Virus record (IMG/VR): IMGVR_UViG_2563366883_000001
Location: 1 to 5,037 of that record
Strand: one strand, 5' to 3'
DNA length: 5,037 bases
Source: a virus
Taxonomy: Duplodnaviria > Heunggongvirae > Uroviricota > Caudoviricetes
In this document: positions 1-5,037 of the stretch, piece by piece
How positions within the stretch are numbered: position 1 is the first letter of the stretch
Layout of the letters: each line of letters begins with the position of its first letter
Position numbers and translations under genes: made by a program
Notes under the pieces: generated by a model
The model's input: the letters and a program-made list of their open reading frames with translations, nothing else
Databases searched by the model: none
What the model was told of the DNA's origin: nothing

Positions 1-65
1 ACGAACGCCGGAAGGCAGCTGGTTTTATTTGAGTCTGAGAAACGATTTTGTCGGAGGAAATTTTA

Positions 66-782
66 ATGGAAACCGTATTTGACGCACTGAAAGCACTGAA
101 AAGAGCCTCTTCACAGGTAGTGGCGGCCCGCCTTGGAATCAGCCGTGAAGATGCGGTCAACGAACTGTGGAAACTGAAGCGCCGCGGTGAAGCGGATAAC
201 AAGGGTTCGATGTGGTGGCTGATTCAGGCTGGTGAAAGTGAACCGGTGTCACCGGTACCGAAAGTGACAGCGCAAATGCTGACTGAGGCGATTGAACAAC
301 ATGGCCCACAAACGGCGGATGAGCTGGCACTGATGTTCGGGATTACCTCCCGCCGGGCGAATTCATCGCTGGCCATGGCAATCAGCAAAGGGCGTCTGAT
401 TCGCGTGAATCAGGGTGGTAAATTTCGTTACTGCATACCGGGCGCTGATTTACCGGCAGAGCCGGAAGCTGCATCCGTAGCGGAAACCGATGGTAAAGCC
501 TTTCCTCAGCCAGCAGGTGTTGCGTTACCAGTACAGGAAATGATGGCACAGGAAGAAATGAAAACAGAAATCGTGGAAGACATTGTGAGGTTACAGCCAT
601 CGATCACCGAAATGAAAGCAGATGACCTGATTCTACCATCGCTGCATGTGGCTAACCGCGAGCTGCGCCGGGCGAAAAGTGATGTCCAGAAGTGGGAGCG
701 AGTCTGTGCTGCGCTGCGGGAACTGAACAAACACAGGGATATTCTCCGGGATATTACCGCCACCAGAGAGCAGCAGCGGTGA
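66..782 (+). CDS. Hypothetical phage protein with two winged-helix-like segments and a charged, coiled-coil-like C-terminus
   Basis: ORF-track frame 48..782. I place the start at ATG 66 because GGAGG at 53-57 sits 8 nt upstream; the TTG at 48 has no SD. Two similar segments (aa ~8-45 and ~76-120) each read like a small wHTH (e.g. [15 protein letters not shown] and [19 protein letters not shown]). Stop TGA 780-782 overlaps the next GTG start. Family not recognised. Confidence 0.6.
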
Positions 783-1096
783 GTGGCTGGAAGAAGTGGC
801 GCTGGGCTGAAATCCTGATACTCCGGCAGTGTGCGGGAACGATGAGAGTCGAAAGCATCGGTTATCTGATTGGTCGTAGTGAGTCAGCCGTCAGGACGAA
901 AGCGCGGGAACTGGGTATCAGCATGATTTTACGGGGTGATTTTCACCCGTCGGCAAAATATTCACAGCGTGATATTGAGCTGGCGCGGCAACTGCATCAG
1001 CGTGGCGTACCCCGACGGGAAATTGCCGAAAAGTTTGGGATGAAGTTGGGCGCAGTGAATAACTACGTTTATTTCGACAGGAGGGTTCAGGAGTGA
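779..1096 (+). CDS. Small HTH DNA-binding protein (GcrA-N-terminal-like / sigma-70 region 4-like pattern)
   Basis: GTG 779 overlaps the upstream stop (GTGA). From this start the protein begins [13 protein letters not shown]...[24 protein letters not shown], which matches the W-x-x-E...I-x-x-x-L-G-x-x-S-x-x-A-V-x-x-K-x-x-x-L-G-[LI]-S pattern I recall from GcrA-type HTH domains. ATG 842 is an alternative start but would cut off the first helix. Weak SD-like AGAGAG at 765-770. Confidence 0.5.
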
Positions 1097-1395
1097 GGGT
1101 GAGGATTTATATCGCCGGTCCGATGACGGGATATGAAAATTTCAACCGCGAGGCGTTTCACAGGGCGGAAGATGCGCTGAAACGGGAAGGGCATACCGTT
1201 TTAAACCCGGCAGTACTTCCGGACGGGCTGACTCAACCACACTACATGGATATTTGCATGGCAATGCTCCGTTGCGTGGATGCGGTTTACATGCTGAAAG
1301 GCTGGCAGCAGTCGGCAGGTGCAAGGGCTGAGCTGGCACTGGCGGAGAAACTGGGCCATGCGGTGATTTTTCAGGAGGTGGGCAGTGAATATTGA
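1093..1395 (+). CDS. DUF4406 family protein (nucleoside 2-deoxyribosyltransferase-like fold)
   Basis: 100 aa with the N-terminal motif RIYIAGPMTG typical of DUF4406 / nucleoside 2-deoxyribosyltransferase-like proteins and an acidic residue in the C-terminal AELALAEKLG segment. GTG 1093 overlaps the upstream TGA; GTG 1099 is an alternative start. Confidence 0.75.
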   Translation: MRVRIYIAGPMTGYENFNREAFHRAEDALKREGHTVLNPAVLPDGLTQPHYMDICMAMLRCVDAVYMLKGWQQSAGARAELALAEKLGHAVIFQEVGSEY

Positions 1396-1624
1396 CCCGG
1401 CGATAACGATTGATATGGCCCTGAACACCGGCCTGGCACTTCTTGGTTATTTCTACATCATGTTCTGCAGCGGACGATGGCTGTCACTGTTGTTCATGAA
1501 AAAATGGAATAAACGCCGTAAGCAGGAGCAACGCCAGAAGGCAATGGATGCATTTTCGAAGCCTTCGGAATTGACGGCATGGAACCAGGGGATCCAGCTC
1601 GCGCAATCAGCAGAGGGGGTGTAG
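1385..1624 (+). CDS. Small membrane protein (one predicted TM helix, basic C-terminal tail)
   Basis: GTG 1385 preceded by AGGAGG at 1373-1378 (6-nt spacer). Hydrophobic stretch LNTGLALLGYFYIMFCSGRWLSLLF followed by a Lys/Arg-rich segment KKWNKRRKQEQRQK. Overlaps the upstream stop by 11 nt. Confidence 0.5.
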   Translation: MNIDPAITIDMALNTGLALLGYFYIMFCSGRWLSLLFMKKWNKRRKQEQRQKAMDAFSKPSELTAWNQGIQLAQSAEGV

Positions 1625-1654
1625 TAATCCTTGTATATCGGAGTGAAGAGAAAA

Positions 1655-1969
1655 ATGACGATCACAAAACAACGAGTAGAAAAAATCATATATCGCCATG
1701 AAATGGGACTGAACAGCGATGTCACTGCCGAAGAGGTTTATGACCTGGCTGTACTGGCGCTGAATTTATCAAATATCGCAAACCTGAAGCGATACGAGCT
1801 TGATATGGATGGTTGCGACTCGTGCGGTCAGGATTGTGGCGCAGATATGACTGAAGATCCTGATGGTGATTATGTCCTGTTTGATGACGTGGTTAAGTTG
1901 TTTGAATTTGATACAACCACTCAAAAGTTAGAAATCCCGGCAAAGGAGGCAGCCAGTGAGCAAGATTGA
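1655..1969 (+). CDS. Hypothetical acidic phage protein
   Basis: ORF-track frame 1631..1969. ATG 1655 chosen as start (purine-rich GAAGAG just upstream); the TTG 1631 and GTG 1643 alternatives are not excluded. C-terminal half is Asp/Glu-rich with a CDSCGQDCG cysteine cluster. Its 3' end overlaps the next gene's GTG start. Confidence 0.55.
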   Translation: MTITKQRVEKIIYRHEMGLNSDVTAEEVYDLAVLALNLSNIANLKRYELDMDGCDSCGQDCGADMTEDPDGDYVLFDDVVKLFEFDTTTQKLEIPAKEAASEQD

Positions 1970-2504
1970 CTATCAGGCACTGCGTGAAAAGGCAGAGAAA
2001 GCAACTAAAGGAAGCTACATCGTAGGGCATACATCTGTTAACCAGCACGGCAATTTAACAGGAGTTTTTGTTTGCCAAAAATGGAAAGGAGAACCCGGTG
2101 GCGTGATTGCGGAATGTCATATTAACTGCCTGATTGAAACAGATGCTCAGGCTTATGCAAACGCTGAATTCATAGCAGAGGCTAACCCGGCTACCGTGCT
2201 GGCACTGCTGGATGAACGGGAAAGAAACCTGCAATACATCAAAAGCCGCGATCAGGAGAACGAGGATATTGCGCTAACGGTAGGGAAGCTGCGCGTTGAG
2301 CTTGAAGCAGAAAAACAGCGGGCAAAAGTTCTATTTATGGAAAATGCTCGGCTTAAGTCAGGCATAGCCGGTCTGATACACCTCGGTATTCGATATGCAG
2401 ATGTTGAGGTCATGAAAATTGCTGGAGATGCCCAGCTTTCTACCCCATGCACTGACAGCATCATAAACAGCATTGCAACAGGCATTCGCATCAAAGGAGA
2501 GTGA
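1956..2504 (+). CDS. Ead/Ea22-like family protein
   Basis: GTG 1956 with AAGGAGG at 1943-1949 (6-nt spacer). Contains the segment NAEFIAEANPATVLALLDERE plus a coiled-coil-like stretch, which I recognise as typical of Ead/Ea22-like proteins of lambdoid phage early regions. Confidence 0.8.
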   Translation: MSKIDYQALREKAEKATKGSYIVGHTSVNQHGNLTGVFVCQKWKGEPGGVIAECHINCLIETDAQAYANAEFIAEANPATVLALLDERERNLQYIKSRDQENEDIALTVGKLRVELEAEKQRAKVLFMENARLKSGIAGLIHLGIRYADVEVMKIAGDAQLSTPCTDSIINSIATGIRIKGE

Positions 2505-2505
2505 T

Positions 2506-3021
2506 ATGGCGTTAACACACCACGAACTCTGTCAGATTGCGTACAAGTTCCTTAAGCGCAACGGGTTCAAGGTTTGCTTTCATGACCGCTTTGTTGCTGT
2601 AACCAGTACCGGAGAACAGCCAGATGCTATGGGATTCAGAAATTCAGCATCATGCCTGATAGAGGCGAAGTGTTCTCGTGCTGACTTGTTGGCAGATAGA
2701 AAAAAGCGTTTCCGTAAAAATCCCTCACTTGGCATGGGCGACTGGCGATTCTTTATTAGTGAGCCGGAAATTATTTCAGTTGAGGATTTACCTCCCGGCT
2801 GGGGATTACTTCACGTTGTTAACGGAAGAGTACGGAAAGTACATGGATGGCCCAGGGGTAATTGCTGTTGGGGTAATCCTGACGATAAGCCATTTACTGG
2901 GAATAAGCAGGTTGAATGCGATTACATGTTATCTGCATTAAGGCGCATGGAGTTGAGAGGGCACCTTAATGAAATATATGACGGTGTGATTGTTAATAAG
3001 AAAGAAGGAAACGCGGCATGA
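2506..3021 (+). CDS. PD-(D/E)xK-motif putative nuclease (possibly MmcB-like)
   Basis: ATG 2506 with AAGGAG at 2494-2499; the ATG at 2473 lacks an SD. Motif GEQPDAMGF ... CLIEAKCSRADLL fits E...PD...(D/E)xK of restriction-endonuclease-fold nucleases. Stop overlaps the next ATG (ATGA). Confidence 0.7.
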   Translation: MALTHHELCQIAYKFLKRNGFKVCFHDRFVAVTSTGEQPDAMGFRNSASCLIEAKCSRADLLADRKKRFRKNPSLGMGDWRFFISEPEIISVEDLPPGWGLLHVVNGRVRKVHGWPRGNCCWGNPDDKPFTGNKQVECDYMLSALRRMELRGHLNEIYDGVIVNKKEGNAA

Positions 3022-3926
3022 TCACTATTACCAAAGGGCGACTGCTGACAATCAAGCAGTGGCGCGAAACATACGGACCGGGTAGCAACGTTGTACTGCC
3101 AGCAGAAGAAGCGGAAGAACTGGCACGAATTGCACTGGTATCGCTGGAAGCAGAGCCGGTGGCAAAGATTATAGCTCATTACCCATTAGGAGTTGACGTA
3201 GGCAAACAAAAGTTCGTACAGGCCATTGGAGAGCTTCCTGACTTTGGCGGATATCTATTTGCCGCCCCGCCAGCGCCGGTAGTGCCGGAAGAAGCAACTC
3301 CGGAAAACGTAGAAATGCTCTCTGGCTATGTTTCCACGTACAAATTAACCGATAGCGAGCGCGATATTGCTGCCGAAATATGGAACGCCTGCCGCACCGA
3401 CATGCTTCAGTCCGGAAACTTTCGGGAAAGCAAGAATTCGTCAACCAATAATTTTCGGGAAATCCCGGAAGCGTCAACCAGCTCTCCGGTAACTCCGGCT
3501 CTTCTGCCTGGTGGTTTCACCATTGAGGAGGCGAAGGAATTACATGAAGACCTGGTACGCAGCCACATAAGCAAGGCCTTAAGTGGCGAAAAGATGAAAA
3601 AGAAAGATCGCGATGCTGATTTGCGCTGGATTCATGGCGTTATAGTTCAGGCAGCGTGGTTTGTAAAAGCATCACTGGAGCAGAATGCACTATCGGGCAA
3701 CTCTCCGGTAACTCCGGATGGTTGGATAAGCTGTAGTGAGCGAATGCCGGATGATGGTCAGCACGTAATTATTTTATGTGATGGCGCATTCGTTCTTTAT
3801 GCGCAATATCGAGACGGTGAGTTTTTTGATGTAGTCCGTAATGGTGATGAATTTTTCGAAACACAGAGCCGCAATGTAACCGACTGGATGCCGTTACCAG
3901 AACCGCCGCAGGAGGTGCGCCAATGA
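3018..3926 (+). CDS. DUF551 domain-containing mosaic phage protein
   Basis: C-terminus DGWISCSERMPDDGQHVIILCDGAFVLYAQYRDGEFFD...VTDWMPLPEPP matches the DUF551 signature (W-x-S...LP...THWMPLPEPP). SD AAGGAA at 3004-3009. Contains two in-frame 17-bp direct repeats, each encoding SPVTP. Confidence 0.8.
   Translation: MITITKGRLLTIKQWRETYGPGSNVVLPAEEAEELARIALVSLEAEPVAKIIAHYPLGVDVGKQKFVQAIGELPDFGGYLFAAPPAPVVPEEATPENVEMLSGYVSTYKLTDSERDIAAEIWNACRTDMLQSGNFRESKNSSTNNFREIPEASTSSPVTPALLPGGFTIEEAKELHEDLVRSHISKALSGEKMKKKDRDADLRWIHGVIVQAAWFVKASLEQNALSGNSPVTPDGWISCSERMPDDGQHVIILCDGAFVLYAQYRDGEFFDVVRNGDEFFETQSRNVTDWMPLPEPPQEVRQ
3482..3717 (+). repeat. Pair of 17-bp direct repeats (ctctccggtaactccgg) inside the DUF551 gene
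   Basis: Exact copies at 3482-3498 and 3701-3717, in the same reading frame, each encoding SPVTP. They flank a ~200-bp segment encoding a charged, helix-like module. Confidence 0.7.
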
Positions 3927-4006
3927 TCTGGCCTGAAGCATTTGCAATTACAGGCGTTGCTATGGCTATCGCTTTTTTAGTATATGTTATTTGTCGGTGT
4001 GGGTAA
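3923..4006 (+). CDS. Predicted 27-aa hydrophobic peptide (MIWPEAFAITGVAMAIAFLVYVICRCG)
   Basis: Not in the ORF track (too short). ATG 3923 overlaps the DUF551 stop (ATGA) and is preceded by GGAGG at 3911-3915 (7-nt spacer). Hand translation gives a single hydrophobic helix, stop TAA 4004-4006. Confidence 0.35.
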   Translation: MIWPEAFAITGVAMAIAFLVYVICRCG

Positions 4007-4041
4007 AAGCGTTCGCCGGGATTAACACCAAAGGAGGGAAT

Positions 4042-4146
4042 GTGTCGGATGATATCTCACTGGCAATGGAAGGTGCGCTGGCTGTTATTGCTGTTGTGGG
4101 TGTTTACTGCCTGGTTGTGTTTTTGATGGATCGACTAGGGAACTGA
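4042..4146 (+). CDS. Predicted 34-aa hydrophobic peptide (MSDDISLAMEGALAVIAVVGVYCLVVFLMDRLGN)
   Basis: Not in the ORF track. GTG 4042 follows AAGGAGGG at 4031-4038 (spacing short, 3-4 nt). Acidic N-terminus, one TM-like helix, charged C-terminus, stop TGA 4144-4146. A 28-aa peptide in another frame (ATG 4040..4126) uses the same SD; the start is ambiguous. Confidence 0.3.
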   Translation: MSDDISLAMEGALAVIAVVGVYCLVVFLMDRLGN

Positions 4147-4154
4147 ATTCATTA

Positions 4155-4176
4155 CGATATGGGAATTCCCATATCG
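4155..4176. repeat. 22-bp perfect palindrome cgatatgggaattcccatatcg centred on GAATTC
   Basis: Every position pairs across the centre at 4165/4166. Lies between the 34-aa small ORF and the predicted hok promoter. No U-tract on either side. Confidence 0.6.
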
Positions 4177-4187
4177 GGTAAAAACGG

Positions 4188-4216
4188 TTTGCGGTAAAGC
4201 GAGAGTTAAGTAGAAT
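4188..4216 (+). promoter_or_regulatory. Putative sigma-70 promoter of the hok/mok mRNA
   Basis: -35 TTGCGG (4189-4194), 16-nt spacer, -10 TAGAAT (4211-4216, 5/6 to consensus). The predicted start site near 4222-4224 coincides with the 5' segment that is complementary to the mRNA 3' end. Confidence 0.45.
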
Positions 4217-4234
4217 TGCTGCGGGTGCTTGAGG

Positions 4235-4270
4235 CTGTCTGCCTCGGGCATGCCACCGTAAGGCAGACAG
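4235..4270 (+). promoter_or_regulatory. hok mRNA leader stem-loop
   Basis: 10-bp perfect stem ctgtctgcct (4235-4244) / aggcagacag (4261-4270) with a 16-nt loop. Lies in the predicted 5' leader upstream of mok. Confidence 0.5.
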
Positions 4271-4277
4271 AGAAAAG

Positions 4278-4343
4278 CCCCAGTTAACATTATGCGTCTT
4301 GCAGGACGCTTAACATTAATCTGAGGCCAATTTCATGCTAGCC
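4278..4343 (-). ncRNA. sok: Predicted Sok-like antisense RNA (approximate bounds)
   Basis: Inferred from the antisense promoter and from the sokC/mokC arrangement I recall. Would be complementary to the mok start codon and SD (4321-4337). The minus strand has a small hairpin (plus coordinates 4294-4309) and a U-rich stretch from plus 4270-4278. Ends not determinable from sequence alone. Confidence 0.35.
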
Positions 4344-4547
4344 ACATGTAGGTTAGCCTCTTACACGCCGAAAGGCAAGGAGAAGCAGGCTATGAAGCAG
4401 CAAAAGGCGATGTTAGTCGCCCTGATCGTCATCTGTATTACCGTCATTGTGACGGCACTGGTAACGAGGAAAGACCTCTGCGAGGTACGAATCCGAACCG
4501 GCCAGACGGAGGTCACTGTCTTCACAGCTTACGAACCTGAGGAGTAA
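4335..4547 (+). CDS. mok: Mok-like regulatory reading frame (in-frame upstream extension of hok)
   Basis: 70-aa ORF from the track, MLATCRLASYTPKGKEKQA followed by the Hok sequence. As I recall, chromosomal Mok proteins such as MokC have this in-frame extended layout. GAGG at 4323-4326 lies 8 nt upstream of ATG 4335. Confidence 0.5.
   Translation: MLATCRLASYTPKGKEKQAMKQQKAMLVALIVICITVIVTALVTRKDLCEVRIRTGQTEVTVFTAYEPEE
4350..4378 (-). promoter_or_regulatory. Putative Sok antisense promoter
   Basis: On the minus strand: -35 TTGCCT (plus coordinates 4378-4373), 17-nt spacer, -10 TAACCT (4355-4350). Placed inside the 5' part of mok, where sok promoters sit in known hok loci. Confidence 0.35.
4392..4547 (+). 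CDS. hok: Hok/Gef family type I toxin, closest to HokD (RelF)
   Basis: 51 aa, MKQQKAMLVALIVICITVIVTALVTRKDLCEVRIRTGQTEVTVFTAYEPEE. From memory this is near-identical to E. coli HokD/RelF and very similar to HokC/Gef. AAGGAG at 4376-4381 lies 10 nt upstream of ATG 4392. Confidence 0.9.
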   Translation: MKQQKAMLVALIVICITVIVTALVTRKDLCEVRIRTGQTEVTVFTAYEPEE

Positions 4548-4615
4548 GAGACCTGGCGGGGGAGAAATCCCTCGCCACCTCTGATGAGTCAGGCATCCTC
4601 AACGCACCCGCACTT

Positions 4616-4642
4616 AACCCGCTTCGGCGGGTTTTGTTTTTT
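4616..4642 (+). terminator. Rho-independent terminator of the hok mRNA
   Basis: Stem aacccgc (4616-4622) / gcgggtt (4627-4633) with UUCG tetraloop (4623-4626), followed by the T-rich run ttttgtttttt through 4642. Confidence 0.8.
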
Positions 4643-4663
4643 CCTGGCATTCTGGTTTACAAT
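4634..4663 (+). promoter_or_regulatory. Possible sigma-70 promoter for the downstream gene
   Basis: -35 TTGTTT (4634-4639), 18-nt spacer, -10 TACAAT (4658-4663). Overlaps the terminator T-tract; weak evidence. Confidence 0.25.
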
Positions 4664-4714
4664 TCGCACGCCAGCCTGAACAACTGGCACCTGCTGCGCC
4701 AGCAGAGACAACCG

Positions 4715-4993
4715 ATGGCGCACGATACCAAATTATACAATTCTGATAATTCAGCCGTCTTTGCCAGCAGGCACGGGCGGCGTTCTCATGCATTCAAATC
4801 TGACAGGTTACAGCACGCCCCATGCACTGAAGAACAGGCCGAATGGCTGATTCAGAACTACCGCAGACGTGGGTATGAGTTTAGGAAAACCCTCAGCCTC
4901 GATTATCGTCACTGGATAATCTCCGTCAGGCTTCCTTACTCTGAACGCCCACCGCGTCCGTCCCGCACATTCCTGCAACGCATCTGGAGGTAA
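4715..4993 (+). CDS. Hypothetical basic protein (92 aa)
   Basis: ORF-track frame 4634..4993. The TTG at 4634 lies inside the terminator T-tract, so I take the first ATG at 4715 as start. Arg-rich, no motif recognised. Sits immediately downstream of hok in the same orientation, as rem does relative to hokD in the K-12 Qin prophage, but I cannot confirm homology. Confidence 0.4.
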   Translation: MAHDTKLYNSDNSAVFASRHGRRSHAFKSDRLQHAPCTEEQAEWLIQNYRRRGYEFRKTLSLDYRHWIISVRLPYSERPPRPSRTFLQRIWR

Positions 4994-4994
4994 C

Positions 4995-5037
4995 GTGCGG
5001 GTATTACTTCGACCTGTTCTGGTACCGGAACTCGGGC
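4995..5037 (+). CDS. 5' fragment of a further ORF running off the window end
   Basis: GTG 4995 preceded by GGAGG at 4986-4990 (4-nt spacer); open to the end of the window (VRVLLRPVLVPELG...). Only 14 codons visible. Confidence 0.25.
   Translation, partial: MRVLLRPVLVPELG

Follow-up and report, generated by a model that had tools for sequence, protein, structure and literature searches.

A putative PD-(D/E)xK nuclease of a prophage early operon represents a divergent MmcB-like family of phages and plasmids

Introduction

The closest described relatives of the gene considered here are the MmcB-like proteins (Pfam PF06319, formerly DUF1052), a family that takes in Caulobacter crescentus MmcB and SPO1766 of Ruegeria pomeroyi, the latter represented by 3dnx, the structure listed for PF06319/DUF1052 in a census of PD-(D/E)xK proteins (PMC3424549). 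MmcB has been reviewed as a PD-(D/E)xK endonuclease under SOS control that shields Caulobacter against mitomycin C and cisplatin, and it is thought to work with translesion polymerases in cross-link repair (PMC9578287). It is a chromosomal protein, found mostly in alpha-proteobacteria (PMC3424549, PMC9578287). Here, we studied a gene at positions 2506-3021 of a 5,037-nucleotide (nt) stretch of tailed-phage DNA (IMG/VR record IMGVR_UViG_2563366883_000001, positions 1 to 5,037; hereafter the window, meaning the whole stretch at its full length), which an earlier annotation made from the letters alone, referred to below as the original prediction, had described as a putative phage-borne PD-(D/E)xK nuclease.

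Unlike the chromosomal, SOS-regulated MmcB, the family to which this gene belongs is carried by phages and plasmids of mostly gamma- and some beta-proteobacteria among the proteobacterial hosts examined, and in the present case by the early operon of a prophage. Identity between MmcB and the phage and plasmid family is only about 23-24%, the MmcB models of Pfam and NCBIfam miss the window protein, and the family differs further in having its own invariant H5, E37, P39 and W99 and, preceding the last helix, an insert of 20 residues (115-133). With archaeal Hjc (PF01870) and the AHJR-like nucleases it has in common a minimal PD-(D/E)xK core, a similar size and a 'PD...ExKxS'-type motif spacing, and its likeness to VRR-NUC, RecU and T7 endonuclease I is one of structure in the superfamily core only, with no sequence-family match. 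We found no study of the phage and plasmid family in the literature on MmcB-like proteins, SPO1766 and PF06319. Because small PD-(D/E)xK nucleases are common in phages, where some proteins are already labelled MmcB-like, the assignment made below improves the annotation and comes as no surprise. What it provides is a testable biochemical function, and residues to mutate, for a family of more than 3000 clusters that lacks a Pfam or NCBIfam model and whose members are annotated as hypothetical, as pseudogenes or, wrongly, as 'adenylosuccinate synthase'.

Homology to MmcB and predicted fold

Translation of the window gives an uninterrupted open reading frame (ORF) at 2506-3021 on the plus strand, encoding a basic protein of 171 amino acids (aa) that begins MALTHHELCQ and has no separate extra domain. 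Its features, in window positions, are as follows.

2506..3021, plus strand: coding sequence of the putative MmcB-like PD-(D/E)xK nuclease (171 aa, 19.5 kDa, pI 9.0)
2515..2844, plus strand: predicted catalytic core, residues 4-113 (alpha1, beta1-beta3, alpha2, beta4, beta5-beta6 hairpin)
2611..2670, plus strand: putative catalytic motif G36-E37-x-P39-D40 ... E53-x-K55 (codons of D40 at 2623-2625, E53 at 2662-2664, K55 at 2668-2670)
2674..2715, plus strand: family signature on alpha2, S57-R58-x-D60-(F/L)61-x-x-D64-x-x-K67-x-x-R70, common to MmcB (SSRADFxSDxK)
2848..2895, plus strand: Cys/Trp-rich segment, residues W115-F130, a confidently modelled loop from the beta hairpin to the C-terminal helix
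2905..2955, plus strand: predicted C-terminal helix, residues 134-150, with near-invariant E137, R146 and R147; aligns to the MmcB ARRK...AARRL helix

Scanned singly against Pfam, the protein gave no match at E <= 1 and, when rescanned within an alignment, none at E <= 10; NCBIfam likewise returned nothing at E <= 10, and a search of PDB sequences with the single sequence yielded noise only. In PHROGs it falls within phrog_9263 and phrog_631, both without known function, and weakly matches phrog_5429 ('DNA repair protein', E 0.0046). The relationship to MmcB is carried by profiles. A profile built from 60 varied members of the family, which share 31-60% identity with the query (A2), matched 3dnx in the PDB with E 1.2e-4, aligning xPD...ExKxSRxDFxxDxK with RVD...ECKSSRADFQADAK and hence the catalytic motif with the RVD...ECK of 3dnx. 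Compared by hhalign with N-terminal fragments of MmcB, the family scored 97.2% (E 4.7e-11). Because a search with a 55-aa fragment of 3dnx returned short, partial MmcB proteins only, a full-length set was obtained by recovering 80 genes from Rhodobacterales genome contigs and translating them, and against this set A2 reached 98.4% probability with E 8.7e-15 over 128 columns, spanning query residues 5-151 and nearly all of MmcB. The relatives of the 55-residue 3dnx piece all carry PF06319, and the two for which a source name is given go under 'MmcB family DNA repair protein'. Beyond the motif, both families have D-(W)-R-F-F on beta4, L-P-x-x-x-G-L-L on beta5 and an RR-containing C-terminal helix.

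Single-sequence scans of the relatives agree with a divergent position. Sub-threshold matches to PF06319 occurred in 18 of the 60 relatives (best E 2.9e-4), and sub-threshold matches to Hjc in 31 of the 60 and, in another scan, in 15/31; the best of the PF01870 matches had E 1.3e-4, and the two scores printed were 16.9 and 17.7 bits, where the Pfam gathering threshold of 21.1 bits is not reached. The query itself has no match to PF01870, and VRR-NUC (PF08774) gave neither a Pfam match nor a close structural one. Since the formal family thresholds failed, we file these proteins as a new branch and not as members of PF06319: judged from sequence, they appear to be a divergent, unnamed sister branch of the MmcB-like proteins, with Hjc a probable more remote relative.

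The predicted structure points the same way. An AlphaFold2 model built on an alignment of 31 homologues had a mean predicted local distance difference test score (pLDDT) of 83.9 and a predicted template modelling score (pTM) of 0.78, with residues 164-171 below a pLDDT of 50 and the tail weak from about residue 151. The modelled elements are a helix at 5-18, strands at 22-25, 41-45 and 48-54, a helix at 58-65, a strand at 80-85, a hairpin at 100-105 / 108-113 and a C-terminal helix at 134-150, which include the alpha-beta-beta-beta-alpha-beta core of the PD-(D/E)xK superfamily (Pfam clan CL0236); the fold is a confident prediction. In the model D40 lies directly before beta2 (41-45), and E53 and K55 lie at the end of beta3 (48-54), the arrangement for which the original prediction had proposed to look. 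The model appears to match 3dnx over the whole domain. Searched by Foldseek against the PDB, it had a best E of 8.8e-3, with matches to AF1548, R2 endonuclease domains, Hjc and Bax1; among predicted viral structures (BFVD), close relatives were followed by proteins that UniProt names 'MmcB-like DNA repair protein' (E 1e-4 to 1e-7), including those of Acidovorax phage ACP17 and Dickeya phage JA13. Together, the profile-profile match and the model favour the original idea of a PD-(D/E)xK nuclease, and we hold it very probable that the protein has this fold and is homologous to the MmcB-like proteins.

Conservation of the active site

A PD-(D/E)xK motif on its own could be chance. We therefore draw on its conservation, counted in the query and 148 cluster representatives, with denominators that vary by column. 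The family is large: when 1.84 billion cluster representatives were searched with a profile, 3290 clusters matched at E <= 1e-3 and 2447 of them at E <= 1e-10, counted at 50% identity. The motif letters in this copy are G36-E-Q-P-D40 ... I52-E53-A-K55. D40 is kept in 142/143 representatives, E53 in 144/145 and K55 in 144/145, and the motif that the original prediction had singled out as a catalytic core is thus present, near-invariant among 148 distant relatives and placed by the model on beta2 and beta3. Further positions behave in the same way, among them H5 (126/130), the acidic residue at 27 (136/137), E37 (142/143), D60 (145/145), D64 (147/148), K67 and R70 (147/147 each), G78 (149/149) and R81 (148/149), such that H5, D/E27, E37, D40, E53, K55, D60, D64, K67, R70 and R81 are each at least 96% kept. 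On the C-terminal helix, conservation is about 85-93% for E137, R146 and R147. Conservation of the catalytic and of the further acidic residues is the pattern of an active enzyme, with an active site under selection.

The Cys/Trp-rich segment toward the C terminus, to which the original prediction had also drawn attention, fared less well. It exists (WPRGNCCWGNPDDKPF, residues 115-130) and is an insertion relative to MmcB, and the position of W122 is usually aromatic and F130 mostly kept, but neither cysteine is conserved: C120 is found in 17/109, and C121 is not among the five commonest residues at its column. The Cys pair thus looks lineage-specific, and because the cysteines are not conserved we rejected a metal-binding or redox role for the segment.

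Fusions were also considered. Where long relatives join the nuclease to Ead_Ea22, DUF551 or dATP/dGTP pyrophosphohydrolase, the fusion seems to be an artefact of read-through or gene calling that takes in neighbouring genes, and these cases were set aside. A metagenome contig encodes a 428-aa protein (P0137; L082 6001-7287) in which a TniB-like AAA ATPase (57-170) is joined to the nuclease domain (265-423), next to a large TPR protein; seen on a single contig, it may be a true fusion or a gene-call artefact.

Genomic context in phages and plasmids

E. coli JE86-ST05 and three other strains carry a prophage to which the entire 5-kb window is 100% identical. In this source prophage the gene belongs to the rightward early operon, between the replication gene P and the antiterminator Q, and the phage-borne, early-region setting first proposed for it is thereby confirmed. 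The operon begins with cro-like, YdaT, DnaT-like (O-type), P, DUF1627, hypothetical, DUF4406, DUF4752 and hypothetical genes and runs on through ead, the nuclease, DUF551, a short hypothetical gene, hokD, a hypothetical gene, DUF968, RusA and Q. The ead-nuclease-DUF551 cassette is found also on IncY P1-like phage-plasmids and in an O103 E. coli prophage, there on the leftward side of the repressor, with a 3'-5' exonuclease gene and a PrtN-like gene next in order. In other elements the neighbours change completely, and we rejected a general functional partnership with Ead/Ea22 and DUF551 for that reason; the Ead/Ea22-like gene appears to be a local cassette partner that is not conserved across the nuclease family.

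Lytic phages place the homologue near replication genes. In Vi01 and GR28A, the two Ackermannviridae genomes examined, which are of different genera, it is near the DNA primase gene: Vi01_091c (L090 3980-4597) adjoins it with a 1-base overlap, and GR28A_00056 (L092 3953-4690) is one gene away. The homologues of these two genomes are longer, at 205-245 aa. For most Ackermannviridae matches (including Vi01), and for other phage homologues, the tblastn alignment is to the N-terminal ~110 residues only, the match in GR28A extending over 92% of the query. The homologue of Vibrio phage MAR10 directly follows DNA polymerase, primase/helicase and SNF2 helicase genes, and that of Vibrio phage H8 lies in the early region near the integrase, its depositors having noted a 'spo1766 structure' match.

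A homologue is carried by 864 plasmids, 411 of them conjugative. On the F-type plasmid pHNEP28_cfr (L086 4977-5495) it is 66% identical, its start overlaps the psiA stop, and the order ssb, DUF905, ParB-like, psiB, psiA, homologue, hok, DUF932, traM marks the leading region. The unit psiA-X-hok, X being the homologue, is intact in at least 199 plasmids. Matching plasmids number more than 5000, and in most of them X is absent from the psiA-hok unit; in F-like plasmids the gene thus behaves as an optional cassette. Plasmids of Pseudomonas, Acinetobacter, Vibrio and Acidovorax carry it among small genes with orphan DNA methyltransferases (Dcm or Dam), and in the Pseudomonas plasmid its neighbours also include ssb, rdgC and toxin-antitoxin pairs.

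Proposed function and alternatives

We consider it reasonably probable that the protein is a Mg-dependent endonuclease of the predicted fold, selective for DNA structure or damage, that acts on the DNA of its own element. A specific role in the replication, recombination or repair of that element is put forward tentatively, from genomic context and the likeness to MmcB. Metal-dependent cleavage of DNA is what membership of the PD-(D/E)xK superfamily suggests, and the protein would be a small, basic, single-domain phosphodiesterase in which D40 and E53 would hold Mg2+, probably with the conserved acidic D/E27 and E37, K55 would position the attacking water, and a basic surface of R58, K67, R70, R81, R146 and R147 would bind the DNA backbone. 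Because there is no separate recognition domain, the enzyme probably chooses where to cut by DNA structure or damage rather than by sequence, with branched, stalled-fork or cross-linked intermediates as candidate substrates. The enzyme would be made early, from a delayed-early phage operon or the leading region of a plasmid, and its action would fall in the first rounds of replication, recombination or repair; a part in DNA metabolism is proposed because homologues lie beside or near genes for primase, helicase, polymerase, ssb, rdgC, psiB/psiA, orphan methyltransferases, 3'-5' exonuclease or RusA.

Some observations weigh against this reading. A Pfam or NCBIfam family match above threshold, whose absence the original prediction had named as a ground for abandoning it, was not found by direct scanning, and taken literally this counts against a PD-(D/E)xK assignment. 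The structure 3dnx is not among the best 50 PDB matches of Foldseek, which is at odds with the profile match to it. Finally, two contexts depart from the pattern, one homologue lying beside IncI-type transfer genes and another beside traN and a type VI secretion system (T6SS) cluster.

Much of the same context could be read as that of an establishment or anti-defence factor, in which the nuclease, made just after entry, would destroy or disarm a host defence component, for instance a nucleic acid of a defence system, or the DNA of a competing element, and would play no part in replicating or repairing its own element. The position between psiB-psiA and hok in the leading region of F-like plasmids speaks for this, as do the runs of small genes with orphan Dcm/Dam, ssb, rdgC and toxin-antitoxin genes on other plasmids, which resemble in gene make-up the leading-region anti-defence islands reported in PMC11541004, and the variable accessory cassettes of early operons in which temperate phages carry the gene. 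We nevertheless regard it as unlikely. Guilt by association with the leading region applies equally to DNA-maintenance genes of the ssb type, the lytic phages conserve the nuclease inside replication modules by primase, helicase and polymerase, and the closest characterised relative is a repair protein. The nuclease had no match in PADLOC, although that library covers defence systems only, and the searched text of PMC11541004 neither mentions the family nor describes an anti-defence protein of PD-(D/E)xK fold, no wider search for one having been made.

The recurrence of the gene by phage replication genes and in plasmid leading regions suggests a DNA-processing step common to entering mobile elements. 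In a bolder form of this idea, which we think rather improbable, the protein would be a dedicated 'entry' nuclease of mobile elements that processes incoming DNA or disables a host defence or SOS-linked pathway. Its expression could come both from the leading regions of plasmids, where it would stand third in psiB-psiA-X, and from phage early operons, and the processing could consist, for example, in trimming or resolving structures that arise from single- to double-strand conversion or from early recombination-dependent replication. If true, phages and conjugative plasmids would have in common an establishment or anti-defence function of a new class.

A further alternative is a classical Holliday-junction resolvase, a functional analogue of archaeal Hjc, T7 endonuclease I or RusA that would act as a dimer to debranch phage DNA, while it replicates or recombines, before packaging, but the same prophage already carries RusA, which weakens this reading, and we consider it quite unlikely.

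Distribution and database annotation

Of 5426 complete E. coli genomes, 928 contain DNA of the nuclease gene, on chromosomes as well as on plasmids and for the most part at 95-100% identity. Elsewhere in the Enterobacterales, relatives at 58-88% protein identity occur in Klebsiella, Lelliottia, Cronobacter, Pectobacterium, Serratia, Providencia, Morganella and others, all of them named 'hypothetical' and none with a Pfam domain. The gene is listed as hypothetical or frameshifted in hundreds of pathogenic E. coli genomes, including O157, O104:H4 and O103 prophages.

That the gene has decayed, or encodes a catalytically dead DNA-binding protein, is hardly credible, for although RefSeq calls the identical sequence frameshifted and the databases hold truncated or frameshifted variants (P0052, 111 aa; P0092; P0045), the 171-codon ORF is uninterrupted and aligns end to end with orthologues of many genera, a 96%-identical form of 171 aa represents a cluster of 1363 sequences, and this copy retains every catalytic residue, all of them being nearly invariant across the family.

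The RefSeq entry for the 100%-identical gene, made by the Prokaryotic Genome Annotation Pipeline (PGAP), gives it as a hypothetical pseudogene ('frameshifted') and covers its first 179 nt only (window 2506-2684; L001 9001-9179; L089 11506-11684). Among the database variants, P0052 is a C-terminal reading that represents a cluster of 645 sequences, and P0092, from O104:H4, is one of the truly frameshifted copies. Plasmid homologues from Vibrio alfacsensis pSEA2 (L097 4486-5187) and a Yersinia enterocolitica plasmid (H92) carry the RefSeq label 'adenylosuccinate synthase', which appears to be a propagated misannotation.

Neighbouring genes in the window

As the original prediction had it, the intact ORF lies between Ead/Ea22-like and DUF551 genes, and these neighbours are matched by Pfam models.

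1956..2504, plus strand: Ead/Ea22-like upstream gene (PF13935, E 3.6e-36)
2494..2501, plus strand: Shine-Dalgarno-like AAGGAGAG, a reading of the sequence, with GGAG at 2496-2499, 6 nt 5' of the ATG
3018..3926, plus strand: downstream gene of 302 aa with a C-terminal DUF551 domain (PF04448, E 9.7e-21)

The Shine-Dalgarno-like element falls within the final codons of the Ead/Ea22-like gene, whose TGA (2502-2504) is separated by 1 nt from the nuclease ATG at 2506, and the nuclease stop overlaps the start of the DUF551 gene in the sequence ATGA (3018-3021). Gene spacing is what suggests the translational coupling to both neighbours that had been proposed earlier. Antisense ORFs across the nuclease stretch are short (30-85 aa), and a further one of 88 aa (2252-2518) overlaps the first 13 bases of the gene only.

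The 302-aa downstream ORF appears to be composite: phrog_660 and phrog_5117 match its N-terminal 134 aa, phrog_3323 matches the first 56 aa, and a Ser/Pro-rich middle precedes the C-terminal DUF551 domain; RefSeq divides it into two partial DUF551 pseudogenes, and in another prophage the DUF551 gene that follows the nuclease is only 567 nt long.

Farther downstream, window 4223-4547 holds a complete hok/sok-type type I toxin-antitoxin locus, in which Rfam sok (RF01794) scores 117 bits at 4223-4397 on the plus strand and a 70-aa ORF at 4335-4547 has a Hok/Gef domain (PF01848, E 2.9e-22), the RefSeq hokD being a shorter, 51-aa reading. A hok gene lies 3' of the nuclease homologue in F-like plasmids too (psiA-X-hok).

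Upstream, window 1093-1395 encodes a DUF4406 protein (E 2.3e-36) weakly like nucleoside 2-deoxyribosyltransferase (PF05014, E 0.036); the helix-turn-helix (HTH)-like ORF before it (692/779-1096) ends in a stop that overlaps the GTG start of this gene. The DUF4752 ORF at 1385-1624 (79 aa) is called 'frameshifted' by RefSeq and extended to 1701, and in that reading (1385-1701) it runs into the start region of the ORF that follows, 1631-1969 (phrog_3126), which contains the Cys-rich stretch DGCDSCGQDCG.
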